Shown: positions 44,140 through 64,000, numbered from the stretch's first letter. The stretch is 64,000 nt of DNA from Gammaproteobacteria bacterium (GCA_024742415.1 JANSYN010000010.1:39251-103250); one strand, 5' to 3'. Numbers and translations: made by a program. The notes: generated by a model not told the origin, from the letters alone.

Positions 44140-44155
44140 GTCTGTGAGTGCTCCG

Positions 44156-45151
44156 CTAATAAGTGCTGCGTGATAGATGCCCGTTGCCCGCTGCCGGGAG
44201 GATAGCACCGTGCTGTTGCACCACCTGTGCCGCCAGCGCCTGCGCACAGTGTACCGCGTGTTGCAGCGCCGCGCCGCGCAGTCGCGCGGCAATGTAGCCT
44301 GCGTTGAACGCATCGCCGGCGCCCGTGGTGTCAACGGCCGCGACCGGGGCTGCCTGCAGGCAGACACTGTCACTGCCAGAGAAGGCGTGTGTGGTCAGCG
44401 CGCTCCCCTTTATCACGATCTCATCGATGTTGTAGTCGGCATAGAAAGCATGGCAATCCTGGGCAGAGACACTGCCCCACAGGGATTGTTCGTCATCCAG
44501 GGTGGGAAACACACTGCTGCAGAACGGCAGTACCGAGCGCAGGTAGTGCTGCGCCTGTTCGGCTGAGTCCCACAGGACTGGCCTGTAGTTGGGATCAAAC
44601 AGGATCTGGCAGTTGCGCGAGCGCAGTGCGCGCAGCAGGCTGACCAGGTTGGCGTGGTCGGCGCGGGTGATCGCAACGGTGATACCGCTGAAATAAAAAT
44701 GCGTGGTGTTGCCCAGGTCCGGCACCTGCGCGAAGCATTCGCGCGCCGGCGAGTGCGCGCGCTCGTAATTGAACGAGCGTTCTCCCCCGGCGTCATTGCT
44801 GATGGTGTAGCGCCCGGCCGTGCGGCCCGGCCAGCGGGTGACCAGGTGCGTATCGATGTGCTCGGCGCGCAGCGCGGCAAGGATGTCACCAGAGGCAGGG
44901 TCATCGCCCAGGCGTGTCAGGTAGCTTACCGGCAGGCCGCTACGCGCCAGGTAGACGGCGGTGTTGTACGTGTCCCCGGCAACGCTGGCACGACGCTGTG
45001 CTGCCTGGCCGGCACTGCGGTGTGCGCCCGATTCAGGTGCGCCACAGTCGCCAGGAATGGCAGGGTGCCCGGAAGGCGACGGCGCAACAGCGTCGATGGC
45101 CGCGTTTGCGGTTATTTCTATCATCGCTTCGCCGGCACAGCAGATTTGCAT
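44156..45151 (-). CDS. kdgK: 2-keto-3-deoxygluconate kinase (PfkB family)
   Basis: GEAMIE, GDTYNTAVYLAR, FDPNYRP.LW and VDTTGAGDAFNAG; next to uxuA. Confidence 0.88.
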   Translation of the reverse strand: MQICCAGEAMIEITANAAIDAVAPSPSGHPAIPGDCGAPESGAHRSAGQAAQRRASVAGDTYNTAVYLARSGLPVSYLTRLGDDPASGDILAALRAEHIDTHLVTRWPGRTAGRYTISNDAGGERSFNYERAHSPARECFAQVPDLGNTTHFYFSGITVAITRADHANLVSLLRALRSRNCQILFDPNYRPVLWDSAEQAQHYLRSVLPFCSSVFPTLDDEQSLWGSVSAQDCHAFYADYNIDEIVIKGSALTTHAFSGSDSVCLQAAPVAAVDTTGAGDAFNAGYIAARLRGAALQHAVHCAQALAAQVVQQHGAILPAAGNGHLSRSTY

Positions 45152-46541: not shown

Positions 46542-47897
46542 ATGACAAGCGACGCGCAACAACTCTCACGGCTCGCGGCAATGGGTCCATTGCAACGGGT
46601 GCCAGGCTACGTGCGACTTAGCGGCCCCGGCTGGCTGCAAGGTGCCATGACGCTGGGCGGTGGCAGCGCCATTACATCGCTAACGATTGGCGCGGTGTAC
46701 GGCTACGAATTGCTCTGGGTGCAACCGCTGTCGATGTTGATCGGTTGCATCATGTTATTTGCGCTGTCGCACCAGACCCTCAGCACCGGCGTAAAACCGT
46801 TTGCCGCCATGCGCGATCACGTCAACCCCCAGTTGGCGTGGCTGTGGGCGCTGGCGGCGCTGGCCTCGAGTATCATCTGGGGCTTCTCGCACTACCCGCT
46901 GTCTGCCGGCATGCTCGAAGAGATCATCGCAGTGAGCAGCGGGTTCAGTTTGCAGGACTCGCCCGGCATGGGCCGCGAGTTGTATCTGTTTGCGCTGGCG
47001 CTGCTGGTCTGGGCGATCTGCGCCTATACCGCCTGGCATTACGGTGCTGGCGGTCGTGCGGTAACCGTGTTTGAAAGTGCAATAAAAGTGCTCAGTTGCA
47101 TGATTGTCTTGTCGTTTGCGTGGGTCGTCATTACCGCCAGTGCCGCCGGGCAGATTGACTGGGGCGCGGCGCTGGCAGGGTATGTGCCTGGCAATCTGCC
47201 CTCTGACAGGGCTGGCGTCACCACCATCATGGCGGCACTGGGAACAGCCGTGGGTATCAATATGACCTTTGTCTATGGCTACACCCTGCTGGATAAGGGC
47301 TGGGGGCCTGCGCACCGGGAACTGGCGCGCTGGGATATCGTCATGGGTCTGGTCATTCCCTACATCCTGGTAACCGGCTTGATATCCATCGCTGCCGCCG
47401 GGGCGTTTTACGGTTCGGACCTCAGTGTGCAGGGCAAGCTCGCCCCGGCGCAGGCCGCCGCGATGTTCAGCGATGCAGGTATGGGGCCGGTAACGGGGCG
47501 CCTGGTGTTTGCCCTGGGTGTGCTGGGCATGGCGGTGGGTTCGCTGGTGATGCACATGCTGTGTTGCGGTGCGGCTGCACGCGCCCTGTTTAACCTGGAG
47601 CACAACGCATTGCAGTATCGCCTGGCCCTGCTGCTGCCAACGCCGGCGGTGCTGGGTGTGTTCCTGTGGTCGAGCATGGGCCCATATGTCATCCTGCCGA
47701 CCTCGGCCATCTGTGGTTTTCTGTTGCCCATCGCCTATGTAGGCTGGTTGTTCCTGAACAACAACAGCGCCTACCTGGGCGATGACCAGCCGCGCGGTGG
47801 GCGGCGTGTGGTATTCAACTGTGCGATGCTGCTGTGCATCCTGACCGTACTGGCCAGTGTGACCTACAGCACCGGCGTCGCGCTGGGCTGGTTTTAA
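46542..47897 (+). CDS. NRAMP/LeuT-fold secondary transporter lacking the DPGN motif
   Basis: GPGWLQGAMTLGGGS TM1, GAVYGYELLWVQPL, GTAVGINMTF; about 11 TM segments. Confidence 0.75.
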   Translation: MTSDAQQLSRLAAMGPLQRVPGYVRLSGPGWLQGAMTLGGGSAITSLTIGAVYGYELLWVQPLSMLIGCIMLFALSHQTLSTGVKPFAAMRDHVNPQLAWLWALAALASSIIWGFSHYPLSAGMLEEIIAVSSGFSLQDSPGMGRELYLFALALLVWAICAYTAWHYGAGGRAVTVFESAIKVLSCMIVLSFAWVVITASAAGQIDWGAALAGYVPGNLPSDRAGVTTIMAALGTAVGINMTFVYGYTLLDKGWGPAHRELARWDIVMGLVIPYILVTGLISIAAAGAFYGSDLSVQGKLAPAQAAAMFSDAGMGPVTGRLVFALGVLGMAVGSLVMHMLCCGAAARALFNLEHNALQYRLALLLPTPAVLGVFLWSSMGPYVILPTSAICGFLLPIAYVGWLFLNNNSAYLGDDQPRGGRRVVFNCAMLLCILTVLASVTYSTGVALGWF

Positions 47898-47927: not shown

Positions 47928-49028
47928 ATGGTGGACATCAAGGACGGGGCAAGTTATGCGCCCACAGCGGCGGCCAGGAAGGTGGTTACCAGGGGCGAGT
48001 TTGTGTTTGCTGCGGCGTTTCTTGACCACGGCCACATCTACGGCCAGACCAACGGCCTGCGTGACGCCGGAGCCCACCTCAAGTGGGTATACGATCCGGA
48101 TCCGGCGCGCCTGGAAAAGTTCGTGCAAACCTACCCCGGCGTGCAGGTTGCGCCGAGCTTTGACTGCATCTTACAGGACGCCCAGGTGCAGCTGGTGGCG
48201 AGCGCCGCAGTACCTGACCAGCGCGCCCGCGTTGGCCTGCAGGTGTTGCAACACGGCAAGGACTACTTCACCGATAAATCGCCCTTTACTGAGCTGTCGC
48301 AGCTCGAGCAAGTGCAGGCGGTGGTTGACCAGACCAATGGTAAATACCTTGTTTACTACGCAGAGCGCGTGCACAACGATGCCGCATGGCAGGCCGGTGA
48401 GATGATCAAGGACGGTGCGATCGGCCAGGTCCTGCAGGTGTTGAACCTGGCGCCGCATCGCCTGGCGAAAGCAACGCGACCTGACTGGTTTTTTGACAAG
48501 GCGCGCTATGGCGGCATCATTACCGATATTGGCTCACACCAGGTGGAACAGTTTCTCACCTATGCCGGTTGTGCAGCAGCCAGTGTGAATTTTGCGCGGG
48601 TCGAAAATTTCGGCCACCCCGACAAGCCCGGCTTTGAGGATTTTGGCGAGTTTTCGCTCACGGGCGACAACGGCGCGTCGTTTTATAGCCGGGTTGACTG
48701 GTATACCCCCGAGGGCCTGCGCGCCTGGGGTGATGGACGTACCTTTATCGTGGGCACGCAGGGCACTTTGGAGCTGCGCAAGTATCTTGATGTCGCGCGT
48801 CAGGCGCCGGCATCCAAACTGTTGTTGGTCGATGGCGCAGGTGAACAGGAAATCGACTGTCTCGGGCAGACGGGCTTTCCTTTCTTTGGCCAGTTGATCC
48901 TCGACTGCCTGCAGCGCAGCGAACAGGCGATGACGCAGGCGCACGCCTTTGCAGCCGCGCGACTGAGTATGCAGGCGCAGGCTGTGGCAGACGCCAGGGC
49001 GACCGCGACCGTAGGCGCAGCGCAGTAA
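47928..49028 (+). CDS. Gfo/Idh/MocA family oxidoreductase
   Basis: LDHGHIYG, GKDYFTDKSP, RPDWFFDK.RYGGIITDIGSHQ.EQFL and WGDGRTFI.GT.GT.E.RK. Confidence 0.88.
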   Translation: MVDIKDGASYAPTAAARKVVTRGEFVFAAAFLDHGHIYGQTNGLRDAGAHLKWVYDPDPARLEKFVQTYPGVQVAPSFDCILQDAQVQLVASAAVPDQRARVGLQVLQHGKDYFTDKSPFTELSQLEQVQAVVDQTNGKYLVYYAERVHNDAAWQAGEMIKDGAIGQVLQVLNLAPHRLAKATRPDWFFDKARYGGIITDIGSHQVEQFLTYAGCAAASVNFARVENFGHPDKPGFEDFGEFSLTGDNGASFYSRVDWYTPEGLRAWGDGRTFIVGTQGTLELRKYLDVARQAPASKLLLVDGAGEQEIDCLGQTGFPFFGQLILDCLQRSEQAMTQAHAFAAARLSMQAQAVADARATATVGAAQ

Positions 49029-49723
49029 TGTCGCAGCCGGACGAAAAAATTCAGCGCCTGTACCTTAAGCTGGCCCAGCAGTTGAGCGAGCGCATCGCGC
49101 GCGGCGATTACCCTGTGGGCGAACGCCTGCCCTCGGAACGTGACCTGGCGGCACAGTTTGGTGTCAGTCGCCCAACGGTGCGTGAGGCGATTATTGCGCT
49201 GGAGATCGCCGGCCTGGTGGATGTGCGCATAGGGTCGGGGGTGTACGTGCAAGAGCAGCGTGCGTCCCAGGCAGCGCTGCTGGAGGTGCAGGGCCCCGGC
49301 CCCTTTGAAATTCTCGATGCGCGCAAACTGATAGAAGGCGAGACCTGCGCACTGGCGGCGCAGCACGCCAGCGAGCAACAGCTCCAGGCCCTGCAGGCGG
49401 TTGTGGACGAAATGACCGAGGAAAACCGACGCGAGGCGGTGACAGAGCGCGCCGACGAGCACTTTCACTGGCTCATTGCACAGGCTGCGGGCAACAGTGC
49501 GCTGGCTGCCACCGTACACTGGCTGTGGCAGTTGCGCAGCCAATCTGGCATCAGTGCGCATTTTCAGCAGCGCGTTCGCGCTGAAGGCATACGACCCATC
49601 GTGGAGGACCACCAGGCCATCATCGATGCCCTGGTAAGGCGCGATGCAGCTGCAGCACGCATCGCCATGCAGGCGCACCTGCAACGGGTAGCCGACCACT
49701 TACTGGAGGTCATGCAACCATGA
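49028..49723 (+). CDS. GntR/FadR family regulator (ExuR/UxuR-like)
   Basis: GERLPSERDLA.QFGVSRPTVREA HTH plus an FCD domain (DEHFH..IA.AAGN). Confidence 0.92.
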   Translation: MSQPDEKIQRLYLKLAQQLSERIARGDYPVGERLPSERDLAAQFGVSRPTVREAIIALEIAGLVDVRIGSGVYVQEQRASQAALLEVQGPGPFEILDARKLIEGETCALAAQHASEQQLQALQAVVDEMTEENRREAVTERADEHFHWLIAQAAGNSALAATVHWLWQLRSQSGISAHFQQRVRAEGIRPIVEDHQAIIDALVRRDAAAARIAMQAHLQRVADHLLEVMQP

Positions 49724-51141
49724 GTCTGCACCCGGATCGCCTGTTCGCGAGCTGTCCGCAGCAGCGGGCGCTGGCGCGTGAACTGTACGAGGCGGTCAAG
49801 GCGCTGCCGATTGTCAGTCCGCACGGCCACACCGATGCGCGCTGGTTCGCTGACAACCGCGCGTTTCCCAATGCCACTACATTGTTACTACAGCCCGACC
49901 ACTACTTGTTGCGCATGCTCTACAGTCAGGGCGTGAGCTTGTCGGCACTGGGTATTGCGCCACTCGACACAGCGGCTGCCGGCGCGCCGCGGGCGAGTAT
50001 CGCCGACCCTGAGCAGGCCTGGCTGTGCTTTGCTGACCACTACCACCTGTTTCGCGGCACGCCCACGCAGCAATGGATGGACCACGTCTTTAGCGAAGTG
50101 TTCGACCTGCCCGAGCGATTTTGCGCCGACAACGCCCGTGAATTCTACGCCGCGATCAACCGCGCCCTGGCCACACCGGCGTTTTTGCCGCGCGCGCTGT
50201 TTGAGCGCTTCAATATAGAGGTGCTGGCCACGACGGAGTCTCCCCTTGACACACTGCAGGCCCATCAGCGCCTGCGTGATGACCCCTGGCGCGGCAGAGT
50301 CATCACGGCGTTTCGGCCCGACCCGGTGCTGGACCCGGATTACGAGGGCTTTGCCGACAACATCCTGAAAATGGAGCAGCTCAGTGGTATTGCCTGCGAT
50401 ACCTGGCGCGGTTATCTGCAGGCGCTGCGTGAGCGGCGCCAGTTCTTTCGCAGCCTCGGTGCAACGTCAACCGACCATGGCCATCCGACACCGTTTACTG
50501 CCGACCTGCCACTGGCACAGTGTGAAACACTGTACGCTGGCGCCCTGGCGGGCTCGCTGTGTGCCGCAGATGCCGAGCTGTTTCGCGGACAGATGCTGCT
50601 GGAAATGGCGCAGATGTCACTGGACGATGGCCTGGTCATGCAGATCCATCCCGGCGTGTATCGCAACCATAACCCCAGTCTGTTCGCACATTACGGGCGT
50701 GATCGTGGTGCCGATATTCCCGGTGCTACCGAGTATGTACGCAACCTCAAGCCGCTGCTGGATAAAGTCGGCAACAACGCCGACTTCACATTGATACTGT
50801 TTACCCTGGACGAGGCCACCTACGCACGAGAACTGGCGCCCCTGGCGGGACACTACCCTGCGGTGCGCCTCGGCCCCCCGTGGTGGTTCCACGACAGCCC
50901 GGAAGGCATGTTGCGCTATCGCCAGCAGACCAGCGAGACAGCGGGTTTCTACAATACCGCCGGGTTCAATGACGACACGCGCGCGTTCCTGTCGATTCCA
51001 GCGCGGCACGACATGGCGCGGCGTATGGACTGCCGCTTTCTTGCGCAATGGGTGAGTGAGCATCGCCTGTGCATGGACGACGCACACGCCCTGGCGCGGG
51101 ATCTGGCAGGTGATCTTGCGCGCAAGGCCTACAGGCTGTAA
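49720..51141 (+). CDS. uxaC: Uronate (glucuronate) isomerase
   Basis: PIVSPHGH, PDHY..RMLYSQG, TDHGH, MQIHPG..RNHN, GPPWWF.DS and FNDDTRAF.SIPARHD. Confidence 0.96.
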   Translation: MSLHPDRLFASCPQQRALARELYEAVKALPIVSPHGHTDARWFADNRAFPNATTLLLQPDHYLLRMLYSQGVSLSALGIAPLDTAAAGAPRASIADPEQAWLCFADHYHLFRGTPTQQWMDHVFSEVFDLPERFCADNAREFYAAINRALATPAFLPRALFERFNIEVLATTESPLDTLQAHQRLRDDPWRGRVITAFRPDPVLDPDYEGFADNILKMEQLSGIACDTWRGYLQALRERRQFFRSLGATSTDHGHPTPFTADLPLAQCETLYAGALAGSLCAADAELFRGQMLLEMAQMSLDDGLVMQIHPGVYRNHNPSLFAHYGRDRGADIPGATEYVRNLKPLLDKVGNNADFTLILFTLDEATYARELAPLAGHYPAVRLGPPWWFHDSPEGMLRYRQQTSETAGFYNTAGFNDDTRAFLSIPARHDMARRMDCRFLAQWVSEHRLCMDDAHALARDLAGDLARKAYRL

Positions 51142-51188
51142 TCCGCTGATGTGCCTGCCGATGCCGAGCCCCTGTTTGCCGTGGTGTT

Positions 51189-52643
51189 ATGCCTAGACTG
51201 TCTCCCGACACGCTGTGTGACGTAGCCCCCGAGGTACGCTTGCCAGCCTACGCGCGCGAGGCGGTGGGTGCGGGCATTGTGCACCTGGGCATAGGCGCAT
51301 TCCATCGCGCGCACCAGGCGCTGTATACCGACGAGCTACTGGCACGACACGGCGGTGACTGGGGCATCATTGGCGTGTCGTTGCGCAGCGCTTGCGTAGC
51401 GCAGCAGTTGCAGCCGCAGGCCGGTTTGTACTCGCTGCTGAGCGTCGATGCGCAGGGTCAGTCGCTGCGTGTCATCGGCGCCGTGCAGTCGGTACTGGTT
51501 GCCACCCGTGAGCCCGACGCCTTGGTGGCTGCCATTGCCGATCCCGCCATACAGGTGATTACGCTCACGATTACCGAGAAGGGCTACTGTATTGGTGCGG
51601 ATGGTCGCTCGCTGAATACCCGCCATGCCGATGTTGCCCATGATTTGCGCAATCCTGGCCACCCGCGCACGGCGCTGGGGTTTCTTGCGCTGGGTTTGCA
51701 TCGTCGAATGGCGCATGGCGGATCTGCACTGACGCTGCTCAGTTGTGACAACCTGGCACAGAACAGTCGCGTGTTGCGCGCGGTGTTGATCGATTACCTG
51801 CAGCGTACCTGGCCCGAGGTTGTGACATGGCTGGAACAGCGCGTGCGCTTTCCCTGCAGTGTGGTCGATCGCATTGTGCCTGCCATGACGGCAGCGCATC
51901 GTGAGCAGCAGGAGCAGGCGCTGGGTCTGTGCGATGCGGGTGCTGTTGCGGCAGAGCCGTTTTGCCAGTGGATTATTGAAGATGATTTTGCCGCGGCCCG
52001 GCCGCCCTGGGACGTCGCTGGTGCGCAGTTTGTGGACAGCGTTGCGCCCTATGAAGCGATCAAGCTGCGCCTGCTCAATGCCAGTCATAGTGCGATCGCC
52101 TGCCTCGGGCTGTTGGTCGGTGCGCAGACCGTCGATGCGGTCATGGCGCAGGCACCCCTGCGCGGTTTTATTGATGGGCTGATGACGCGCGAATTGATGC
52201 CCACGCTGCAGGTGCCGGCGCATTTCGATCTTGCGGCCTACAAAGACACCTTGTTACAACGTTTTGATAACCCCTGGCTGGCACATCGTTGCGCGCAGAT
52301 AGCGATGGACAGCAGCGAAAAAATTGCCCAGCGCTGGCTGCCCACGCTGCAAATTTCGCTGTCACCGGCACTGGTCGCGGCGCTTAGCCTGTGGTGCGCC
52401 ATGATGCTATTGACGGATACCGATGTGGAGGATTCGCAGGCAGGGCCGCTGTTACGCGCCCGTGCTTCGGGGGCAGCGCTGGCGCAGCGTATTGGCGATG
52501 TCCTGGCGTGTGCGCGCATAACGCCAGCAAGCGTTGCAGATTTTGATCATCTGCTGGCGATGCTGGTACGAAACCTCGACAACTACCAGCGCTGCGGCGT
52601 GTCCGGTGTGCTGGATGCGCCTGCCTCCCGGGCAACGGCCTAG
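51189..52643 (+). CDS. uxuB: D-mannonate oxidoreductase / mannitol dehydrogenase family
   Basis: IVHLGIGAFHRAHQA, TITEKGY, LSCDNL, VDRIVP, EPF.QW.IED, KLRLLNASHS and RFDNP.L.H...QIAMD. Confidence 0.88.
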   Translation: MPRLSPDTLCDVAPEVRLPAYAREAVGAGIVHLGIGAFHRAHQALYTDELLARHGGDWGIIGVSLRSACVAQQLQPQAGLYSLLSVDAQGQSLRVIGAVQSVLVATREPDALVAAIADPAIQVITLTITEKGYCIGADGRSLNTRHADVAHDLRNPGHPRTALGFLALGLHRRMAHGGSALTLLSCDNLAQNSRVLRAVLIDYLQRTWPEVVTWLEQRVRFPCSVVDRIVPAMTAAHREQQEQALGLCDAGAVAAEPFCQWIIEDDFAAARPPWDVAGAQFVDSVAPYEAIKLRLLNASHSAIACLGLLVGAQTVDAVMAQAPLRGFIDGLMTRELMPTLQVPAHFDLAAYKDTLLQRFDNPWLAHRCAQIAMDSSEKIAQRWLPTLQISLSPALVAALSLWCAMMLLTDTDVEDSQAGPLLRARASGAALAQRIGDVLACARITPASVADFDHLLAMLVRNLDNYQRCGVSGVLDAPASRATA

Positions 52644-52735: not shown

Positions 52736-55700
52736 GTGATAAAAAAACTCGCCACCGTGGGTGGACTGCTCGTACTGGTACTCATCGCCTGGCGCTTGCT
52801 GGGTGTGACCGAGGCGCCGACGTTCGTGCCCGAGGAGGGCTACACCGCACTGTATGACGGTCGCTCCCTGGCGGGTTGGCAAGTGGTCGGCGGTGGCGCA
52901 ACGTTCAGTGCGCAGGGCGAATCGATTGTCGGCCGTGTCGGGCCAGGAGAGAACACCTTCCTGCGTACGCAAGCAACCTTCGGCGATTTTTCCCTGAAGC
53001 TGCAGATGCGCTGGGATGAACCGGGTAACTCCGGCGTCATGTTTCGCGCCAACCAGCGTGGCGGTGACGGCCGGACCTACGGCTACCAGTATGAGCTGGA
53101 TGCCTCAGATCGCGCCTGGAGTGGCGGCATCTATGACGAGGCGCGCCGTGGCTGGCTGGCCAACCTGGAAAATAACGCCGCGGCGCGTGAGGCAATTCGG
53201 CTCGATGACTGGAACGATGTGGAGATCCAGGCACGCGGTGCCAGCTTGCAAACCTGGATTAACGGCGTGCCCGCCGCCGATATCGTTGACGGCCTGGATG
53301 CAAGGGGCTTTATTGCCCTGCAGGTACACAGCGGTAGCACCGGCGTGATGCGCTGGCGCCACATCCAGATCAAGGAATTACCCCCGACGCTGGTCGCCGG
53401 AGACAGCCTCGTGAGCGCTGCTGAATGGCGTGACGTGCCCGCCGGGATCAGCTTTGACAACAGCGCCATTCGCGGGCCCTCGCTTGCCCGGGACGAGTTG
53501 CTGGTATCTCGCCGCTTGTTCAATGACGCCATGATCCGAATGACGGTGCCCGCCTGTGAGCAGCCGACCATCGTACAACTGCGCCATCGCCTGGATAGCA
53601 GCACAGATGAGGCAGGTTTTGCCGAAGTGCGCATTTTTTCTGATCGTGCGCAGGCCAGGCTGGTCACGCGCGCGGGCGAGCGGCTGATGGACCCCATCCA
53701 GTTGCCGGCAGGCACCACGCATGAGTTTGTGGGTCTGACGCGCGAAGGCGAAGTGGCGTTGACCATTGGTGAGCAGGACGCTTTGCGCATCAGCGGTGCG
53801 GCGCTGCACGACCGCGGGCAGCTGCGTGTGCACCCCGCGCGCTGCGGCCAGGACTTCGTGATTGACGACCTGGCCTGGTACTCACTCAAACGCACCAGCG
53901 CAGAGCCCCTGTTTTACCAGACGCTTGAGGTACCGCCCGCACCGGTGCTGACGCCCGAGCAGGCCTTGCAGTCCTTTCACCTTGCGCCGGGCTTTGAGAT
54001 TGAACTGGTAGCGGCCGAGCCGCTGGTGGAAGACCCGGTCGCCATGGCCTGGGATGAGTATGGCCGGCTGTACGTGGTGGAGATGCGCGGTTACATGCCC
54101 GATGCCTATGGTACGGGTTCGCAGGAGCCGGTGGGGCAGGTCGTGCGCCTGGAAGATACTGACGGCGATGGTCGTATGGATACCAGCGAAGTTTTCCTCG
54201 GGCAGCTGGTCAACCCGCGTGCGGTCGCGGTGGTGAACGAGGGCATTTTGATTGGCGAACCGCCCAACCTGTGGCTGTGTGAACTGCCCGCGCACGATGC
54301 CCTGTGTACCAGCAAGCGACGTGTCGGCGGCTATGCCACCAACGTCGATACGGCCAATGTGGAGCACATGGAAAACGGCCTGCTGCCGGGGCTGGATAAC
54401 TGGCTCTACAACGCCAAATCCGATCGCCGATTGCGCCTTGTGGATGGAGCAATCGTTGCGCAGCAGGGTGTGAATCGTGGCCAGTGGGGCATTACCAAAG
54501 ACAACCTGGGGCGGCTGTTGTACAACCACAACTCAACGTGGGTGCAGGCGGATTTGTTTCAGGCTGAAGATATCGTCCTTCCCGATCGCAAAACCCCGGC
54601 CAGGGGAGTGGGCGTTAACCTGACCCCGCAGCCGGAAGTGTTTTCAGTACGCGTGAACCCGGGCGTAAACCGCGCGTATCTCGACGGGACCCTGCGTGAG
54701 GATGGGCGCCTGAATCGAACCACCGGCGTGAGCGGCCTGGTGGCCTATCGTGGTGACCAGTTTCCCGCGCGTTATGCCGGCGATGTGTTTGTGCCGGAAT
54801 CCGCCGGCAACGTGGTGGCGCAGTTTGCCGTGCAGCCCAGCGGTATGTCGCTGCAGGCACAGCAGCGCCTGTACCCGGATACCACCTGGGGCCAGCGCGA
54901 CTTTCTGGGGTCTACCGATGAACGCTTCCGTCCGGTGGATGCCAGCAACGGTCCGGACGGTGCCCTGTACATCATCGATATGTATCGCGGCATTATCCAG
55001 GATGACCACTTCCTGACGGACGAACTGCGCGAACAGATTTTCCAGCGCGGCCTGGATGCCCCCGTTGGTATGGGTCGCATCTGGCGAGTGCGTCACAGTG
55101 AAGGGGCCGAACGTTCCGCTGCGCCGGTGCTGGCTACTGCAAGCGATGCGCAGCTCGTTGCGGCGCTGTCGCATGGCAATGGCTGGGTGCGAGATACCGC
55201 ACAGCGGCTGTTGCTGGCCCGCGGTGACGCGGTGACCGGGCCACTGGCTGCGGTGGCGCGCACGGGTGAACAGCTGGCGGCGCTGCATGCACTGTGGACG
55301 CTGCACGGTCGCCACGAGCTCGATGCTGGCCTGGTGCAGTCGCTGCTTGGCCGCACCGATGAGCCACAGCTGCAGGTCAACGCCTTGCGTGCCGGCGCCA
55401 CGTTGTTGAGTGATGAGGCATTGCTGGCGCTGGAGCCGCTAACAAGGACACAGGAGAGTGTCGCCATGCAATGGGCTTTTGCGCTGTCGGGCAGGGCGCA
55501 GAACCCTCAGGTGCGCGCAGCCCTGGTGCGACTGCTGGAAGGTCACTGGGACAGCCCCTTCGTGAACCAGGCGGTAGTGCGTGCGGTGTATGGCCATGAA
55601 ACTGCGTTTTTGCAGGATGTGCTGCGCTCAGGTGTTGCAGATACACGTGGCAAGCCGCGCGTGGCCCTGTTGCGTGAGTTGGGTAGCAATGCCTACCTGA

Positions 55701-56653
55701 CCCTGCGCGGGGACCTCACGGCGACTGCTGCGGCGAATCCGCAGTTGACTGGCCTGCTCGAGCTGATCCAGTCACGCGCGGGAGCGCTGGCGTGGCAGCA
55801 GGTCGCCTTGCTTCAGGGCCTGAATCGCGTTGCCGACAGTGCCGGGTTTGTGCCGGCTGCGCTGGACGCGGCGCCCCCCATTTTTGCGGATGCGACGATC
55901 GGTGAAGACAACCCACTGTACAAGGCGCGCCTGGCAGGACGCCGTGCCTTCACCTGGCCGGGGGATGAACTGGCGCTGGGCATCACGCCACTGAGTCCCG
56001 AACAACTTAAATTACAGCAGCAGGGCGAGGCCTTTTATGTGCAATGTGCCGCCTGTCATGGCGATGATGGCAAGGGCATCAGCGGCCTGGCGCCGGCCCT
56101 GGCCGGGGCATCCTGGGTGACCGGCCCGCCGGAATGGCTCGGCCGCATTATCCTGCAGGGTCTGAAGGGGCCTATCGAGGTGAACGGCGAGGTCTTTGAT
56201 GGCGTCATGCCGGGGCATGGGCACCTGCCTGCCCTGGATGACGCAACGCTGGCGGGCCTGATGACGTATCTGCGCCGTAGTTGGGGTAATCGCGCCAACC
56301 CGGTGAGTGTGGCAGCGGCGGCGCAGATTCGGCAGTCCAGCGCGGATCGACAATCTCCCTGGACCGCCAGCGAACTGCAGGCGGTGGCCTATGACCGTGG
56401 CTACGCGCGTTTCGTGGGCCAATACAAGATCAGCTTCGTGACCTTTACGGTGACGCAGGAGCCCGATGGCCTGCACATGTCGGTGCCGATGTACGGCGCC
56501 GGCAAGTTAGAGCCACTGTCCGATACGCGCTTTGGCGCGGTTGCCGGCGGTGAGAAGGTCGAGGTGGAATTTGTGGTTGAAGACGACGGCAGCGTCGACA
56601 CGATGATCCTGCTGCGCCAGGGTGAACGCATTCCGGTGCCGCGCAAGGGGTAG
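52736..56653 (+). CDS. DUF1080 + PVC-type membrane-bound-dehydrogenase propeller + HEAT repeats + cytochrome c fusion protein
   Basis: N-terminal TM; DUF1080 motifs (GNSGVMFRA, WNDVEI, GFIALQVH); FHLAPGFEIELVAAEP..DPVAMAWD..GRLYVVEM; RFRPV....GPDGALYI.DMY; LSH.NGWVRDTAQRLL; CAACH...VMPG. Confidence 0.85.
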   Translation: MIKKLATVGGLLVLVLIAWRLLGVTEAPTFVPEEGYTALYDGRSLAGWQVVGGGATFSAQGESIVGRVGPGENTFLRTQATFGDFSLKLQMRWDEPGNSGVMFRANQRGGDGRTYGYQYELDASDRAWSGGIYDEARRGWLANLENNAAAREAIRLDDWNDVEIQARGASLQTWINGVPAADIVDGLDARGFIALQVHSGSTGVMRWRHIQIKELPPTLVAGDSLVSAAEWRDVPAGISFDNSAIRGPSLARDELLVSRRLFNDAMIRMTVPACEQPTIVQLRHRLDSSTDEAGFAEVRIFSDRAQARLVTRAGERLMDPIQLPAGTTHEFVGLTREGEVALTIGEQDALRISGAALHDRGQLRVHPARCGQDFVIDDLAWYSLKRTSAEPLFYQTLEVPPAPVLTPEQALQSFHLAPGFEIELVAAEPLVEDPVAMAWDEYGRLYVVEMRGYMPDAYGTGSQEPVGQVVRLEDTDGDGRMDTSEVFLGQLVNPRAVAVVNEGILIGEPPNLWLCELPAHDALCTSKRRVGGYATNVDTANVEHMENGLLPGLDNWLYNAKSDRRLRLVDGAIVAQQGVNRGQWGITKDNLGRLLYNHNSTWVQADLFQAEDIVLPDRKTPARGVGVNLTPQPEVFSVRVNPGVNRAYLDGTLREDGRLNRTTGVSGLVAYRGDQFPARYAGDVFVPESAGNVVAQFAVQPSGMSLQAQQRLYPDTTWGQRDFLGSTDERFRPVDASNGPDGALYIIDMYRGIIQDDHFLTDELREQIFQRGLDAPVGMGRIWRVRHSEGAERSAAPVLATASDAQLVAALSHGNGWVRDTAQRLLLARGDAVTGPLAAVARTGEQLAALHALWTLHGRHELDAGLVQSLLGRTDEPQLQVNALRAGATLLSDEALLALEPLTRTQESVAMQWAFALSGRAQNPQVRAALVRLLEGHWDSPFVNQAVVRAVYGHETAFLQDVLRSGVADTRGKPRVALLRELGSNAYLTLRGDLTATAAANPQLTGLLELIQSRAGALAWQQVALLQGLNRVADSAGFVPAALDAAPPIFADATIGEDNPLYKARLAGRRAFTWPGDELALGITPLSPEQLKLQQQGEAFYVQCAACHGDDGKGISGLAPALAGASWVTGPPEWLGRIILQGLKGPIEVNGEVFDGVMPGHGHLPALDDATLAGLMTYLRRSWGNRANPVSVAAAAQIRQSSADRQSPWTASELQAVAYDRGYARFVGQYKISFVTFTVTQEPDGLHMSVPMYGAGKLEPLSDTRFGAVAGGEKVEVEFVVEDDGSVDTMILLRQGERIPVPRKG

Positions 56654-56758: not shown

Positions 56759-57115
56759 TCAAGGCGGTGTTGGTGAGTGTCTGGCCAGCAGTACGCCGGA
56801 CCACAGCGCAACAAGGGCCAGGCCGCCGATCTCGCGGGCTTCTTCAATGGCGCGGGTGCGCATGCCCAGCGATGCGAATACCTCGCTCCAGCTTACCGTG
56901 CCGGCAAGGCCAGGCAGCAGGGTGGCGATCCAGGCAAGGCTGGTCAGCAGCAGTGCCAGCGGCACCCAGCGGGCGAGTTTTCTGCGATACTGCGCCGCGC
57001 ACATGAGCGCAGCCGCCAGATAGAGGGCGATCCAGTGTGCCGCGTCGGCGTCGTTGACCTGCACCGCAGCACACAGCAGGTAGGCGAGCAGAAAAATGCT
57101 GTTCAACAGGGTCAT
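56759..57115 (-). CDS. TMEM220-like small membrane protein
   Basis: AAVQVNDAD...WIALY and C-terminal EEAREIGGL; 4 TM segments. Confidence 0.75.
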   Translation of the reverse strand: MTLLNSIFLLAYLLCAAVQVNDADAAHWIALYLAAALMCAAQYRRKLARWVPLALLLTSLAWIATLLPGLAGTVSWSEVFASLGMRTRAIEEAREIGGLALVALWSGVLLARHSPTPP

Positions 57116-57318
57116 CGGCGATCGTGCCACCAGCGCAGTGTACATAGCCCAGGGATGGCCATTGTAGCGCATGCCAGCGCCGCGCAGGGTGTGTCGTTGT
57201 GCCGCGGCGTTGGACGACCCGCGCCCGCTGAACCGCAGTGCGACCAGCGGCTTGCGCGCGAGCAATCCGGGCACTGCAATAACCTTTAAGAACCAACAGG
57301 ATCACACAGCAAATCGAC

Positions 57319-59235
57319 ATGACGTGTTTTTTTCTTCCCAGGGCACTGCCGCTGGCCATGCTGGCTGCAACCGCCTGTATAACGGGGTCCGCAAGTGCCG
57401 CTACGCCGTCGGCGGAAGCGCCACCGGCGCAAATGGAGCAGTTGCTGGTGACCGGTAGCTACGCGCCCACGGCGGACATTACCGCATCGGTAACGGTGCT
57501 CGATGCGCAGCTGATTGCAGCGCTGAACAAGCGCAGCGTGGCCGCACTGCTGAAAACGGTTCCGGGCTTGCTGGTTGAGGAGCAAGGCGGCCCCGGCGGA
57601 CTGACCGCCGTTTCCATACGCGGTGGCGAGGCCAATTTCACGCTGGTGTTGCTGGACGGCGTTGCCTTGAATGATCCCACCAATACCCGTGGCGGTGGCT
57701 TCGATGTCGCCAACCTTAACCCGACGCAGATAGAACGTATCGAAGTGGTGCGCGGCGCGCAGTCGTCGATTTACGGGTCCGATGCGCTGGCGGGGGTGAT
57801 CAATATCATCTCAAGGAAGGCGCGAGCCGGGCATCAGCAGCGCGTCAATCTTGAGGTTGGGGAAGATGACTTTCGCGATGCCGGCATCAGCTTCAGCGGT
57901 GTGCACGCAGACCTTGATTATCGCCTTGCGCTAACCACGCGCGACGAGGGCGAGCCGGTGCCTGGCAGCACGCGCGAAAACGACAGCGCGCATCTGCACC
58001 TGGGTTGGCGCGTGAACCAGCAGCACACGCTCGCGGCAAACCTGCGCTATCAGCAGGGCGAGCGCAGTGCTTACCCGGAACAAAGCGGTGGCCCGGAGTT
58101 CGCCCTGATCGATGCGCTGGACCATGCCGAGTATGAAGACAGGATCATTGCGCTTGACTGGCGCGCTGCGCTTTCCCCTGCGTGGAACAGCACGCTTACA
58201 GCGCAGCGGCTGGAACACCATGAAGACGTGGATTCACCCGGCATACCGCCGTTCTCTGCTGTGCCGCCGAACGGCGCCCGCACGCAGTACACACGCGATG
58301 ACCTGCGTTGGATCAACAGCGTGCTACTGGCAGAACACTACCGGCTCGATACGGGCGGGGATTTGCGCCAGGAGCAGGGCCGGGCCGAGGGCTATGTCGA
58401 GTTCTTTGGCGATCGCATGCCCACCAACTTTGCGCTCGACAGAAACACCCTGGGTGTGTTCGCCACGCTGAGCGCCACGCCCGTCGCCTCAACGGTGTTT
58501 AACACCAGCGTGCGCTATGACGACCCGGAGGGCTTTTCCAGTGAGACGTCATGGCGCCTGGGCGTGCGACATGCCGTGACACCCACGCTGCACCTCAGCG
58601 CCAATTGGGGTGAAGCCTACAAGCTCCCCAGTTTTTTTGCGCTGGGCAACGCGCTGGTGGGCAATCCTGACCTCAAGCCCGAGAAGGCCACGGGCAGTGA
58701 CATAGGCCTGGAATGGGCGATCGAGCGCGGACTGCACCTCGATCTCACGCTGTTCTATAACGATTTCAAGGATCTGGTGGACTTCGACGACGCCACCTTC
58801 CGCAACGTCAATCGCGGTCAGGTGGAAACTCAGGGTGTTGAGATGGCCCTGGCCTATGCACCTTCCACCCGGCTCAGTGTCATTGGTACGGGCACCTATA
58901 CGGACATCGATGTGCGCGAAGACACCCGGCTGACGGGGCGTCCGCAGTGGAGCGCGGGCCTGGCGGTGCAGTGGCAACTCGCGCTGGCATGGGACACCAG
59001 CGTGGACTATCGTTACACCTCAGGGCAGTGGTCCATTTCGCGCCACACCGGGCAGGAGCGCGCCGCACGACTCGACGACTACTATCGCCTGGACTGGGTG
59101 CTGCGTTGGCAGGCGGCCGAGGGCGTACAACTGCGCGCATCGCTGGACAACCTGCTGGATGCACGTTACGACACAGCCGTTGGTTTTGCGGCACCCGGTC
59201 GCGCGGCCCGGTTTGGCGTGCAACTGGAATTCTAG
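57319..59235 (+). CDS. TonB-dependent receptor (compact, BtuB/CirA-like)
   Basis: Signal peptide, TonB-box-like EQLLVTGS, plug motif IERIEVVRGAQSSIYGSDALAGVINII, GNPDLKPE, DNLLD..Y and C-terminal Phe. Confidence 0.93.
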   Translation: MTCFFLPRALPLAMLAATACITGSASAATPSAEAPPAQMEQLLVTGSYAPTADITASVTVLDAQLIAALNKRSVAALLKTVPGLLVEEQGGPGGLTAVSIRGGEANFTLVLLDGVALNDPTNTRGGGFDVANLNPTQIERIEVVRGAQSSIYGSDALAGVINIISRKARAGHQQRVNLEVGEDDFRDAGISFSGVHADLDYRLALTTRDEGEPVPGSTRENDSAHLHLGWRVNQQHTLAANLRYQQGERSAYPEQSGGPEFALIDALDHAEYEDRIIALDWRAALSPAWNSTLTAQRLEHHEDVDSPGIPPFSAVPPNGARTQYTRDDLRWINSVLLAEHYRLDTGGDLRQEQGRAEGYVEFFGDRMPTNFALDRNTLGVFATLSATPVASTVFNTSVRYDDPEGFSSETSWRLGVRHAVTPTLHLSANWGEAYKLPSFFALGNALVGNPDLKPEKATGSDIGLEWAIERGLHLDLTLFYNDFKDLVDFDDATFRNVNRGQVETQGVEMALAYAPSTRLSVIGTGTYTDIDVREDTRLTGRPQWSAGLAVQWQLALAWDTSVDYRYTSGQWSISRHTGQERAARLDDYYRLDWVLRWQAAEGVQLRASLDNLLDARYDTAVGFAAPGRAARFGVQLEF

Positions 59236-59245
59236 GGTGGTGGGT

Positions 59246-59980
59246 ATGCGCAGTGTTGTAGTGATCCTTGTTGTCGCGTGGGCCGCAGTACTGGGTGGCT
59301 GTTCTGACGACGAGGTTATCGCGCCAGGGGAATGCGTGAACGCGCTCAGCGCGCAGGAGCAAACCGCGGGCTGGCGTTTGCTCTTTGACGGGCAATCCCT
59401 GGCGCAATGGCGCAGTTATCAGCACGATGAATTGAAAGAAGGCTGGGGTATCGAGAACGGCTGCCTGGCGCGTCTGGGACGCGCGGGTGACATTATCAGC
59501 CGCGAGCAGTTTGGTGACTTCGAGCTGAAACTGGAATGGCGGGTCTCTGCGGCCGGCAACAGCGGCATTTTTATTCGTGGAGACGAGTCCGGTCGCAGCA
59601 TTCACCACACCGGCTATGAAATGCAGGTACTGGATAACGCCGGGCATCGGGATGCCAAAGACCCGACGCACCGTGCCGGCGCGCTGTACGACATGATCGC
59701 CCCTGATCACGACACCACCCAACCTGTGGGCTACTGGAATCGCGTGCATATCGTTGCGCGCGGTCGCGTCGTGGAATTCTGGCTGAACGAGCGCCTGACC
59801 GCGCGCTTTGAACAGGGCAGCAGCGACTGGCAGGCGCGCTATGCGCGCAGCAAGTTCACTGACAGGCCGGATTATGGCAGCCTCCTGCGCGGCCATATTG
59901 GCTTTCAGGACCACTGGGACAAGGTCTGGTTTCGCAATATCCGGATTCTCACTGCCGACCAGGCGGGCCAAACAAACTGA
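59246..59980 (+). CDS. DUF1080 (3-keto-disaccharide hydrolase/lyase) lipoprotein
   Basis: Lipobox LGGC, LLFDGQSL..W, FELKLEW, GNSGIF, EMQVLD, GALYD, WNRVHI, GHIGFQDH and VWFRNIRI. Confidence 0.9.
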   Translation: MRSVVVILVVAWAAVLGGCSDDEVIAPGECVNALSAQEQTAGWRLLFDGQSLAQWRSYQHDELKEGWGIENGCLARLGRAGDIISREQFGDFELKLEWRVSAAGNSGIFIRGDESGRSIHHTGYEMQVLDNAGHRDAKDPTHRAGALYDMIAPDHDTTQPVGYWNRVHIVARGRVVEFWLNERLTARFEQGSSDWQARYARSKFTDRPDYGSLLRGHIGFQDHWDKVWFRNIRILTADQAGQTN

Positions 59981-61366: not shown

Positions 61367-62338
61367 TCAGGGCGCGCACCGCGCCATCAGTTCGGCATTG
61401 GTCGGCAGTGCCGCAAAGCACTGGGCACGACAGGCGTCCGCCTCGTCGCCCCATGTGAGCGGGTTCAGGGTGCAGCCGGCCAGGCACGGCCCTACGGCCT
61501 TGCCCATTTCCCAGCGCATACAGGAGCGATCATCGTCAGTGAGGTACGCAGCGCCAGGCGCGGCCAGGAACTGCCCGATGGCAGGCGTTGTACTGTTTGG
61601 CGCCAGCCCGGTGCGTGCAGAGCCGTCCTGGTTGAGGTTTCCCGTTACCCACAACACCGCATTGGTGAGCAGGCGCTGGTAGGCCGGATCGTCAATGGTG
61701 GCAGTGCTGTGGCCCAGCGTGGTGCCGAACAGGCGCGTGTCGCCGGCGCTGTGGATCCAGGCGGTCACATGTTGTGCGCCATCCTCACCTGTCGCCTGCA
61801 GCAGCGCGCTGCCCTGGAATGCCAGGTTGATGTAGAGCTCATCATGGGCAATACGCCAGGGGCTTGGTATACCGGTGAGAATAGGGTGGCGCACCACCTG
61901 CTGCTGCTCGATTTCGCCAATCGATTCATGCGCCGTGGTGTGCAGTCCGTGCAGAGGCCACCACAGGTCTGTGGTGCGAAAAGAATGCATGGCGCAGTGC
62001 AGCACGATGGCCGGTATGCGCAGTGTTTCGGTCTGGCGGCGCAAATTGCCGATGAGTGCGGCGTCGCTGTTATCAGCCATGCAGATGTTGTAGATGATAA
62101 CGTCATAGTCGCGAGCAAAGTCGGCTTGCTGCCAGCGCGCGGTGTCCGCGAGTGAGACGTCGAACTGGATGTGGATGTTGCCGGCAAGGGCGGAGGTGAT
62201 GGCCTGGCTCTGGTATGCGTAATCATGATAGATGCCAGGGCTGGTCAGCAGCAGCGCCTTGATCTGTGCGTGGGCAAGGCTGCCCGGCAGCAGTGTGGCT
62301 GCCAATAGGAAAAATACTGTGCGGATATCAGGCGTCAT
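61367..62338 (-). CDS. Exported ThuA-like (class I GATase-fold) protein with a Cys-rich C-terminal tail
   Basis: Signal peptide ending AHA-Q; YDVIIYN, VLHCA.HSF, HPILTG.P.PW...DELY and RLFGTTLGH; six-Cys tail. Confidence 0.8.
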   Translation of the reverse strand: MTPDIRTVFFLLAATLLPGSLAHAQIKALLLTSPGIYHDYAYQSQAITSALAGNIHIQFDVSLADTARWQQADFARDYDVIIYNICMADNSDAALIGNLRRQTETLRIPAIVLHCAMHSFRTTDLWWPLHGLHTTAHESIGEIEQQQVVRHPILTGIPSPWRIAHDELYINLAFQGSALLQATGEDGAQHVTAWIHSAGDTRLFGTTLGHSTATIDDPAYQRLLTNAVLWVTGNLNQDGSARTGLAPNSTTPAIGQFLAAPGAAYLTDDDRSCMRWEMGKAVGPCLAGCTLNPLTWGDEADACRAQCFAALPTNAELMARCAP

Positions 62339-62579: not shown

Positions 62580-64000
62580 TCAGCGCGCGTTACCTGCAGT
62601 GTGCGACTCGGGCAGTGCGTACGCAATATAAGTGCTGGCGGAGGGCTGGTCCACTCTGCCACCGCCGGCAGCGATGACCACAAACTGCCGTTGGCCCGCC
62701 CGGTAAATGGCCGGCGTCGCAAAACCCGCAGCGGGCAGCGTGGTTTGCCACAGCAACTCCCCCGAGGTCTTGTCGAAAGCGCGCAGTTTTGCGTCCGGCG
62801 TTGCTGCAATAAACAGCAGGCCCCCTGCCGTAACCACCGGTCCACCGTAATTCTCAGCGCCCAGCCCCGACAGGCCCATGGCCAGTGCCTGTGGATAGTC
62901 ACCCAGCGGTACCTTCCAGGCAATGCTGCCGCGGTTCATGTCCATGGCTACCAGGCTGCCCCATGGTGGTTGTGAGCCGGGCAGTTTGTGCTCATCGCGT
63001 AGCACGTGAAAGCCATCGGCCATGTAGCCTGTGATGTTGCCACTGGCCTCGCGGCTGGCGATTTCATCGTCAGCGGCGGTGTACAGGTATGCAATGGCGC
63101 CCGCCAGGTAGTACCAGGGCTCGTTGGAGAATGCCGGCATGCGGCCGCGGCCCTGCCGGGCAATAGCGTAGACCTCCCAGGGCCAGTACTTCGCGCTGAT
63201 GTTTTGCAGTGAGGGAAAAATCTGCCCGTTGCCCGCGCGATCGGCGCCATGGCAACTGCCGCAGAATTGCAGGTAGGCAAACTCGGTACTCATGACGTGC
63301 AGGCCACCCTCGGCAACCGAGGGCACCAGTTTGAAATACCACGGCACTTCGTTGGTATTGATGTACAGCATACCGGTGCTGGGATCATAGGCTTGTCCGC
63401 CCCACTCGGCACCACCATCGAGCCCGGGATAGATTACGATGCCCTGCTCATCGGGCGCGTGATAGGGCGCCGAGATGCTCATACCCTGAATGAGTTCACT
63501 GATGTAGGCATGGCTGCCGCTGGTGACCTTGGAGATTGCAAACTGCTGGTTGGCAAATGGCGGCGGCACGCTGGGCAGTGGCTGCGTTGTGGGCAAGTGT
63601 TCGCCCGGCGCACCGGCGCCTGTTACGGCAACCTCCTCAATGGGAAACAGCGGTTCGCCGGTGTCACGATGAAACACAAAGACATGGCCCGATTTGGTGG
63701 CCTGGGCGACAGCGGGGATGCGCTGGCCGTCGCGCATGATATGAATAAGGTTGGGTGGTGTGGGTAAATCCCTGTCCCAGAGATCATGGCGCACAAACTG
63801 ATAGTGCCACAGTCGCTCGCCGCTGGCGGCATCCAGCGCCACCAGGGAGTTGGCGTAGAGGTTGTCGCCGGCGCGGTTGGCGCCGTAGAAATCGTAAGCC
63901 GCAGAGCCTGTGGGAACGAAGGCTATGCCGCGCTGTTCATCCACGGTAATCCCCGCCCAGGAATTGGCTCCGCCGATAGTGGCACGGGTTGCCTCTGGCC
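62580..64000 (-). CDS. PQQ-dependent dehydrogenase (glucose-dehydrogenase-like) with an internal cytochrome c domain; 5' end outside the window
   Basis: GGANSWAG, NLYANSLVALDA.SG..LWHYQ.V.HD.WD.D, PGLDGGAEWGG, CGSCH, PPWG.LVA.D...G..AW, ENYGGPVVTAGGLLF and AFDK.SGELLW. Confidence 0.92.
   Translation of the reverse strand, partial: PEATRATIGGANSWAGITVDEQRGIAFVPTGSAAYDFYGANRAGDNLYANSLVALDAASGERLWHYQFVRHDLWDRDLPTPPNLIHIMRDGQRIPAVAQATKSGHVFVFHRDTGEPLFPIEEVAVTGAGAPGEHLPTTQPLPSVPPPFANQQFAISKVTSGSHAYISELIQGMSISAPYHAPDEQGIVIYPGLDGGAEWGGQAYDPSTGMLYINTNEVPWYFKLVPSVAEGGLHVMSTEFAYLQFCGSCHGADRAGNGQIFPSLQNISAKYWPWEVYAIARQGRGRMPAFSNEPWYYLAGAIAYLYTAADDEIASREASGNITGYMADGFHVLRDEHKLPGSQPPWGSLVAMDMNRGSIAWKVPLGDYPQALAMGLSGLGAENYGGPVVTAGGLLFIAATPDAKLRAFDKTSGELLWQTTLPAAGFATPAIYRAGQRQFVVIAAGGGRVDQPSASTYIAYALPESHTAGNAR

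Follow-up and report, generated by a model that had tools for sequence, protein, structure and literature searches.

How can a single polypeptide combine a domain from a family of keto-sugar-cleaving enzymes with a dehydrogenase-like propeller and a cytochrome c, and what might such a protein do? The question is raised by a gene at positions 52736-56653 of a 64,000-nucleotide stretch of DNA (GCA_024742415.1, JANSYN010000010.1:39251-103250), hereafter the window, which comes from a marine Halieaceae bacterium and in which this gene encodes an exported protein of 1305 residues. A first-pass annotation, made from the sequence alone, had listed the domains of this fusion and interpreted it as an enzyme whose propeller and heme oxidise glycosides at C3 and pass the electrons to respiration, while its DUF1080 domain eliminates the aglycone and feeds the adjacent pathway. 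Domain scans bear out every element of the observation, that is, the open reading frame (ORF) and each of the listed domains. The interpretation stands in part, since a redox propeller and its coupling to DUF1080 are supported, whereas the assumed type of DUF1080 cleavage and a general link to uronates are not. Our own reading, to which we give a probability of roughly 0.5, is that the fusion belongs to the 'PVC-type' DUF7133-HEAT-cytochrome c family and acts as a carbohydrate oxidoreductase linked to cytochrome c, tethered to the membrane and facing the periplasm, with a dedicated DUF1080 partner.

The gene starts with a GTG codon, preceded some 8 nt upstream by a purine-rich GAGAGAA, and its modules follow one another in this order:

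52736-56653, plus strand: the whole fusion gene (P0001), a single uninterrupted ORF of 1305 codons' worth of protein (1305 aa)
52748-52804, plus strand: N-terminal hydrophobic segment, residues ~5-23, with the sequence KKLATVGGLLVLVLIAWRLLG
52838-53374, plus strand: DUF1080 domain of the 'D1' subtype (after domain 1 of BT3469), residues 35-213 (PF06439, E 5e-36)
53393-53890, plus strand: second jelly roll, residues ~220-385 (AlphaFold pLDDT mostly >90)
53954-55099, plus strand: DUF7133/TIGR02604 six-bladed beta-propeller of the sGDH/AA12 superfamily (PF23500, residues 407-788)
55148-55975, plus strand: helical HEAT-like spacer, residues ~805-1080 (HEAT_2 weak in the fusion, E 0.49)
56021-56278, plus strand: class I cytochrome c, residues 1096-1181 (PF00034, 28.2 bits against a cut-off of 21.3)
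56045-56059, plus strand: CAACH, the CxxCH motif of this cytochrome, residues 1104-1108
56207-56209, plus strand: putative axial Met1158 (VMP), aligned with c552 and nitrite reductase (NiR) cytochrome domains
56402-56611, plus strand: small C-terminal beta domain, weakly DUF3471-like, residues 1223-1292 (PF11954, E 2e-4 on the excised region, below the curated cut-off)

The CxxCH motif is kept in 97/97 full-length orthologues, which argues that the fusion architecture is under selection and is no chance ORF. A hydrophobic N-terminal stretch comparable to the one listed above, which the first-pass annotation had called a transmembrane anchor, occurs in 73 of these 97 proteins and could be either a signal anchor or an uncleaved signal peptide. 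Full-length relatives of identical architecture number 98 (51-69% identity), next to 19 relatives of ~950 aa that lack the N-terminal tandem, and the nearest proteins are found in Halioglobus, Haliea, Seongchinamella and other Halieaceae. The protein is already present in public databases, under generic names, and our literature search found no paper on the DUF1080-DUF7133-cytochrome architecture.

For the propeller, both PF23500 (DUF7133; E 2e-100, 337 bits against a cut-off of 27) and NCBIfam TIGR02604, named 'PVC-type heme-binding CxxCH protein' (159.1 bits against 122.2), match above their curated cut-offs, as expected for the PVC-type dehydrogenase propeller annotated earlier. A phmmer search of the propeller against PDB sequences returned nothing detectably similar, and the profile of the DUF7133 family gave only a marginal match there, to glucose dehydrogenase 7CDY (E 0.68), in which 'ERIREV' aligns with 'ERFRPV' of the fusion. 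Homology was therefore shown through a bridging protein from the same genome (L002:6550-8088, minus strand, on contig C12), which consists, in 512 aa, of a GSDH/AA12-like propeller and a C-terminal cytochrome c, and to which a 65-member alignment of the family matches with an hhalign probability of 97.8% (E 1e-12, 304 columns). This bridge places His544 opposite the His of 'YIHNGGRIRFGPDG' in 3A9G, and Arg581-Gly582 opposite 'RN'. Conservation among the 65 sequences is high for H544 (55/65), R730 (64/65) and R732 (65/65), and, by a mapping that is transitive, His544, Arg581 and Arg730/Arg732 may be the counterparts of sGDH catalytic or PQQ (pyrroloquinoline quinone)-contacting positions. Structurally, the propeller comes closest to aldose/glucose dehydrogenases (3A9G, 2ISM, 2G8S, 7CGZ), and it belongs, as a remote relative, to the sGDH/AA12 sugar-dehydrogenase superfamily.

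On the C-terminal side, Thermus c552 and the corresponding domain of Ralstonia Cu-nitrite reductase both align to the cytochrome domain (E 3.5e-14), so that the class I cytochrome c with a CAACH...MP signature holds as first described. The combination of an sGDH/AA12 superfamily propeller with a near-universally fused cytochrome c makes an oxidoreductase passing electrons to heme the natural reading. As for the spacer, the proposed HEAT-like repeats are clear in homologues, where HEAT_2 is significant at the equivalent place and whose alignments run contiguously through this region, although the signal in the fusion itself is weak. The small C-terminal beta domain, likewise recovered through its weak DUF3471-like match, is missing from the common ~850-aa relatives, whose matches stop at query position 817. 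A complex prediction of the propeller and HEAT region with the heme-loaded cytochrome domain scored 0.00, a value that carries no weight either way.

The N-terminal DUF1080 domain is unambiguous as a family member (124.9 bits for PF06439, also known as 3keto-disac_hyd, against a gathering cut-off of 26.8), and its closest solved relative is domain 1 of 4JQT (E 2e-46), with PDB entries of the BT2157 (BT2) type being only marginal matches (E 1e-3 to 6e-3). The active site of BT2157 comprises E103, N134, E164, Q166, Y190, K245, Q273 and H275 (bioRxiv 10.1101/2024.03.25.586180). These residues were mapped onto the fusion through the alignment with 8V31, except for Glu103, which lies in a variable loop and was not mapped with confidence. 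The equivalents of Asn134 (NSG) and Gln273/His275 (QxH) are kept as N98, Q196 and H198. They belong to a set that is invariant in the D1 subtype across Gammaproteobacteria, Planctomycetota and Verrucomicrobiota (N73, D94, N98, R104, Q118, E120, D122, R126, W128, Y133, E135, W140, Q196, H198), and the resulting pocket lies at strand positions equivalent to those of the active site in BT2. Judging from these alignments, the pocket is remodelled relative to BT2157/AL2 and not decayed. The 'intact DUF1080' of the first-pass annotation is thus correct for the domain and for a conserved pocket, but not for a catalytic domain of the BT2157/AL2 type.

Pfam gives no match between DUF1080 and the propeller. 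Residues 25-402 nevertheless form two all-beta sandwich domains when modelled with AlphaFold (pLDDT 90, pTM 0.85), and in the PDB the model is matched best by BT3469 with its tandem DUF1080 (4JQT; E 7e-24, 438 columns), over both domains. On this model, the second jelly roll is probably a degenerate copy of DUF1080, in agreement with the degenerate sandwich suggested before. It is confined to the Halieaceae fusion; a role as a conserved partner module was ruled out, as planctomycete D1 neighbours have no counterpart.

That DUF1080 and the propeller-cytochrome protein belong together is strongly supported by their distribution. Of 80 related loci (one genome per species, scanned with purpose-built hidden Markov models), 18 have a DUF1080 either as part of the propeller gene or no more than 10 kb away. 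The D1 subtype is found as an N-terminal fusion in six Halieaceae loci, as a C-terminal fusion in a planctomycete (L051), and as a gene of its own immediately next to the propeller gene in other Planctomycetota and Verrucomicrobiota (L050, L052, L061 and L069; 37-44% identity to the fused domain), the L052 neighbour resembling BT3469 and comprising one D1 and one BT2-type domain. In the source genome, all three DUF1080 domains (3/3) are in, or beside, a propeller-cytochrome gene. One of them is part of a second, independent fusion of 1079 aa (P0122; L001:814-4053, minus strand, contig C19) with another layout: a ~270-aa uncharacterised N-terminus is followed by a cytochrome c (279-363) and then by an sGDH/DUF7133-like propeller, and the C-terminal DUF1080 is of the BT2157 type and has every catalytic motif. 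The family of P0122 is conserved in Halieaceae, with DUF1080-less forms of ~830 aa, and P0122 is arguably a better candidate for oxidation and cleavage in one chain than the fusion reported here. The remaining domain is encoded downstream of our fusion:

59243-59980, plus strand: stand-alone BT2157/AL2-type DUF1080 lipoprotein, with lipobox LGGC (PF06439, E 6e-49)

This lipoprotein matches 8TDA, 8V31 and 8RR2 (E ~1e-29), keeps the NSG, ExQ, LYD, SKF and QDH motifs, and is set apart from the fusion by a minus-strand TMEM220 gene and a TonB receptor gene. Two fusion orders, neighbouring genes in three phyla and P0122 as a further, independent fusion together make good, sequence-based evidence that DUF1080 and the propeller-cytochrome module are functionally coupled. 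It is evidence of the Rosetta-stone kind, which points to a partnership and does not reveal its chemistry.

The fusion closes a tight string of co-directional genes, with uxaC and uxuB just before it, in which the seven genes between 45360 and 56653 are spaced by 27, 30, -1, -4, 47 and 92 bp:

42946-45151, strand not stated: uxuA and kdgK, on the upstream side of the string
45360-46514, plus strand: first cytoplasmic Gfo/Idh/MocA oxidoreductase (Pfam), first gene of the string
46542-47897, plus strand: Nramp-like carrier (PF01566)
47928-49028, plus strand: second cytoplasmic Gfo/Idh/MocA oxidoreductase (Pfam)
49028-52643, plus strand: GntR regulator, uxaC and uxuB-like reductase, with gaps of -4 and 47 bp between the genes
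51189-52643, plus strand: uxuB-like reductase alone, ending 92 bp before the fusion
56759-57274, minus strand: TMEM220-family membrane protein (PF15071, E 4e-17), between the fusion and the TonB receptor
57319-59235, plus strand: compact BtuB/CirA-like TonB-dependent receptor, in a position that is syntenic in relatives
61367-62338, minus strand: exported ThuA-like protein (PF06283, signal peptide)
62580-63998, minus strand: canonical PQQ quinohemoprotein alcohol dehydrogenase

The position directly after uxuB on the same strand, as originally noted, is accurate. Neither Gfo/Idh/MocA protein has a signal peptide, and ThuA recurs near orthologues of the fusion. Among the 80 loci, the most conserved neighbour of the propeller gene is the Nramp-like carrier (28/80, in Proteobacteria, Acidobacteriota and Myxococcota), followed by the Gfo/Idh/MocA pair (15/80); the carrier is a more conserved partner than either DUF1080 or the uronate genes. 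The triad Gfo/Idh/MocA - Nramp-like - Gfo/Idh/MocA accompanies the DUF7133-cytochrome gene in many Gamma- and Alphaproteobacteria (L006-L065), and in Acidobacteriota and Myxococcota the Nramp-like gene alone sits divergently beside it.

The string is syntenic in Halioglobus maricola (Gfo - Nramp-like - Gfo - GntR - uxaC - uxuB - fusion - TonB receptor - DUF1080), where uxuB overlaps the start of the fusion by 4 bp and the TMEM220 gene, which keeps its position in several relatives, is absent. On the 3' side of the H. maricola orthologue (L003:17362-23909) lies an AraC-controlled group of genes for a Gfo/Idh/MocA protein, two xylose-isomerase-like TIM barrels (BT1/AL1, which are 3-keto-beta-glucoside lyases, have this fold), an MFS carrier, and a LacABC-like pair of Gluconate_2-dh3 and GMC proteins, which looks like a second system of the 3-keto-glycoside type.

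A scan for promoters and terminators gave nothing above shuffled expectation, and an Rfam scan of 44-64 kb found no riboswitch, hence no sign of cobalamin control of the BtuB-like receptor. The idea that this receptor imports PQQ in the manner of PqqU was left unsupported, its closest solved relatives being BtuB, CirA and FhuA, with no PQQ transporter among the matches. In near-identical strains represented in two public runs, 2 bp are missing at position 57288, in the spacer 5' of the receptor start.

How might these elements work together? In the mechanism that we favour, (i) the six-bladed propeller would oxidise a sugar or glycoside, as suggested by its homology, the conserved His544 and the ERFR motif, with a cofactor that, if it is PQQ, would have to be scavenged, as the genome lacks pqqC; (ii) electrons would reach the respiratory chain via the fused class I heme c, as suggested by the near-obligatory cytochrome c fusion; (iii) the N-terminal D1 tandem would act as a dedicated partner module, which may bind the glycoside or perform beta-elimination/hydration of the oxidised sugar, the partnership being well supported and the chemistry presumptive. 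Gene context suggests that (iv) the canonical lyase/hydratase step would more likely be carried out by the downstream BT2-type lipoprotein, that (v) the co-conserved Nramp-like carrier probably takes up the oxidised sugar for reduction by the cytoplasmic Gfo/Idh/MocA pair, and that (vi) in this lineage the product may enter the UxaC/UxuB/UxuA/KdgK route, the uronate pathway being perhaps a lineage-specific sink. Periplasmic oxidation followed by import and cytoplasmic reduction would fit, by analogy, the Alistipes cluster in which a cytosolic Gfo/Idh/MocA protein, AL4, accompanies AL2 (bioRxiv 10.1101/2024.03.25.586180). As regards the earlier proposal of oxidation linked to respiration, a redox propeller feeding heme is thus supported by the superfamily and by the cytochrome fusion, whereas in-chain elimination by DUF1080 is weakened by the domain not being of the BT2 type.

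Several observations weigh against this reading. In the propeller, the Asn of the PQQ-binding 'RN' pair of sGDH is replaced by Gly (Gly582), and the C3 oxidation of the first-pass annotation is pure conjecture. In the fused DUF1080, the Glu164-x-Gln166 of BT2157 is not kept and reads Gln118-x-Glu120, a swap that is invariant in the D1 subtype (the BT2-type proteins of the source genome carry ExQ); the ~20-residue finger bearing Lys245, 'SK(F/Y)', is deleted, and no Tyr aligns with Tyr190 ('LYD'). The catalytic residues of characterised DUF1080 enzymes are therefore partly missing, and by its alignments the domain is of a type other than that of the keto-sugar-cleaving BT2157/AL2. We know of no D1 member with a known activity, and the compact D1 fold is at least as close to the lectin module CBM66 (template modelling (TM) score of 0.78-0.80 with 4AZZ and 4B1M) as to BT2/AL2 (~0.53), so a binding role for D1 is conceivable. 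The uronate connection is also narrower than was first thought: uxaC-uxuB adjacency holds in this lineage, but these genes sit beside the propeller gene in only 8/80 loci. Three metatranscriptome runs, together with one DNA run, contained a near-identical strain, with a coverage that was flat over all genes and both strands and from which transcription and operon structure cannot be judged.

The cofactor adds a further difficulty. No pqqC was found in the source genome, which is 99.65% complete, nor any pqqE above the cut-off, and pqqC is present in only 1/10 other carrier genomes. The search method itself works, as the same search detects pqqC in 9/61 genomes of the order. The genome nevertheless encodes at least three sGDH-like propellers in addition to the canonical PQQ alcohol dehydrogenase of the window, and the presence of the latter without pqqC makes scavenging of PQQ plausible, unless another cofactor is used.

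Three other explanations have to be weighed against a cytochrome-linked oxidoreductase with a DUF1080 partner. The literal form of the first-pass model, in which the propeller oxidises the glycoside at C3 and its own DUF1080 eliminates the aglycone, which would make the protein a glycosidase that oxidises and cleaves unaided, narrows our reading further, and we consider it possible but doubtful. It would account for the fusions in both domain orders and the adjacency across phyla, for a conserved polar D1 pocket with equivalents of Asn134, Gln273 and His275, and for the fact that 3-keto chemistry is the sole activity shown for DUF1080 enzymes, and P0122 offers a precedent, with its BT2-type DUF1080 complete in all motifs. 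D1, however, has neither the Lys245 finger nor Tyr190, and its QxE replaces ExQ. Even where D1 is fused, moreover, a BT2-type DUF1080 is retained downstream as a separate protein, which argues that D1 is no replacement for it, and C3 regiochemistry receives no support from the characterised relatives of the propeller. Most of these relatives oxidise aldoses at C1, which leads to another explanation: an aldose C1-dehydrogenase like Asd or sGDH would turn free reducing sugars into aldonolactones, the DUF1080 tandem would be a CBM66-like capture lectin, and aldonates (e.g. mannonate) would proceed to UxuA/KdgK. This scenario agrees with the aldose/glucose dehydrogenases being the closest structural relatives of the propeller, with the TM score of 0.8 between the compact D1 fold and CBM66, and with uxuA and kdgK lying at 42946-45151. 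We nonetheless regard it as unlikely, for it leaves unexplained both the recurrent pairing with a BT2-type DUF1080 lyase and the cytoplasmic Gfo/Idh/MocA pair; the invariant acid/amide/His pocket of D1 appears, from its residues, more catalytic or metal-like than the CBM66 site; and uxu genes adjoin only a minority of loci.

The remaining alternative, that the propeller is a non-redox glycosidase or lyase with a structural or sensing cytochrome, seems highly improbable. It draws on the only published activity for the family. Lac161_ORF7 (TIGR02604, HEAT and cytochrome c) was purified and reported to be a 'novel beta-galactosidase' releasing glucose from lactose, with a Km of 1.8 mM (PMC5342196). 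Its production host was E. coli BL21(DE3)pLysS, the assay relied on a glucose-oxidase kit, and the authors themselves note a Km equal to that of LacZ (PMC5342196). Redox catalysis is favoured by the almost invariable presence of a fused redox domain. E. coli BL21 is lacZ+ and makes no PQQ, so that carry-over of host LacZ is a plausible artefact and the beta-galactosidase activity questionable. Contrary to the first-pass annotation, the family is not wholly uncharacterised, but its one report rests on a doubtful assay.

Comparison with known systems shows what the Halieaceae fusion shares and what it adds. The PVC-type CxxCH proteins (TIGR02604/TIGR02603; DUF7133, HEAT and cytochrome c), a family of unproven function, have the same propeller, helical spacer and C-terminal CxxCH cytochrome, with homology over ~817 residues in hundreds of ~850-aa proteins. 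The fusion differs from them by its N-terminal tandem of D1 DUF1080 and jelly roll, its C-terminal beta domain, and its occurrence in Gammaproteobacteria (Halieaceae) and not in Planctomycetota/Verrucomicrobiota. PQQ sugar dehydrogenases and AA12 enzymes (sGDH 1C9U, Asd 2G8S, 3A9G, CcPDH 6JT5/6JWF) share the six-bladed fold, and their catalytic His, RN-pair Arg and RxR motif have putative counterparts in aligned residues of the fusion (ERFR in the last case), whereas the fusion is only 12-18% identical to them, has Gly for the RN Asn, comes from a host without PQQ biosynthesis, and carries its acceptor in the same chain.

As for DUF1080, the BT2/AL2 enzymes are 3-keto-alpha-glucoside lyases and glycal hydratases, and cleavage via 3-keto intermediates extends to glucuronides (bioRxiv 10.1101/2024.03.25.586180). 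The fused domain belongs to the same Pfam family and has the same jelly-roll fold, but D1 has the new invariant residues D122, R126, W128, Y133, E135 and W140. BT3469 (4JQT, a structural genomics entry from Bacteroides thetaiotaomicron, on the function of which we found no paper) matches in its two-domain layout, although it has neither propeller nor cytochrome and its second domain is an intact BT2-type DUF1080. A functional parallel is LacABC of Caulobacter crescentus, a periplasmic glycoside 3-dehydrogenase paired with a DUF1080 protein (PMC9007349), which combines, as the fusion would, a periplasmic dehydrogenase giving electrons to cytochrome c with a DUF1080 protein encoded alongside. 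The likeness is a functional analogy only, as the LacABC dehydrogenase is a flavin adenine dinucleotide (FAD) enzyme of the GMC type with separate cytochrome and Tat subunits, whereas the fusion is an sGDH-like propeller in one chain in which a Pfam scan found no GMC or FAD domain.

Seen from the family at large, the Halieaceae protein is one elaboration of a very common core. The propeller-spacer-cytochrome core matches 16,140 clusters at 50% identity (E<=1e-3), or 1,988 at E<=1e-30, and such DUF7133-HEAT-cytochrome c proteins are abundant in Planctomycetota, Verrucomicrobiota, Acidobacteriota and marine Gammaproteobacteria. The usual form, of ~850 aa, has no additional domains. In the family as a whole, a cytochrome c is almost always found at the C-terminal end, and the matches continue through the heme domain. 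In other lineages the N-terminal extensions vary (DUF1080, sulfatase, (neutral-)ceramidase-like, DMFA2_C, DUF6807), which suggests that the core acts as a redox module recruiting accessory domains, some of them plausibly carbohydrate-processing. Proteins with other N-terminal enzymes on the propeller-HEAT-cytochrome core include P0151, P0189, P0192, P0193, P0208 and P0241.

A broader proposition follows, which is tentative and rather unlikely as a whole: DUF7133-HEAT-cytochrome c proteins may be unrecognised respiration-linked periplasmic glycoside dehydrogenases, whose D1 DUF1080 partner cleaves or hydrates the product, while keto-sugars are imported by a repurposed Nramp-fold carrier and re-reduced by Gfo/Idh/MocA enzymes. 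Were this true, it would amount to a complete, non-hydrolytic and energy-conserving route of glycan breakdown, parallel to LacABC and to Bacteroides BT2156-2160, in which oxidative cleavage of glycosides feeds electrons straight into respiration. It would also define a second functional branch of DUF1080 and possibly an Nramp-fold carrier for organic substrates. The Halieaceae fusion and the second fusion of the same genome are convenient single-polypeptide objects for putting these ideas to the test, with the prospect that the 'membrane-bound dehydrogenase-like' proteins, a very large family with a strong presence among marine and soil polysaccharide degraders, would gain a function.

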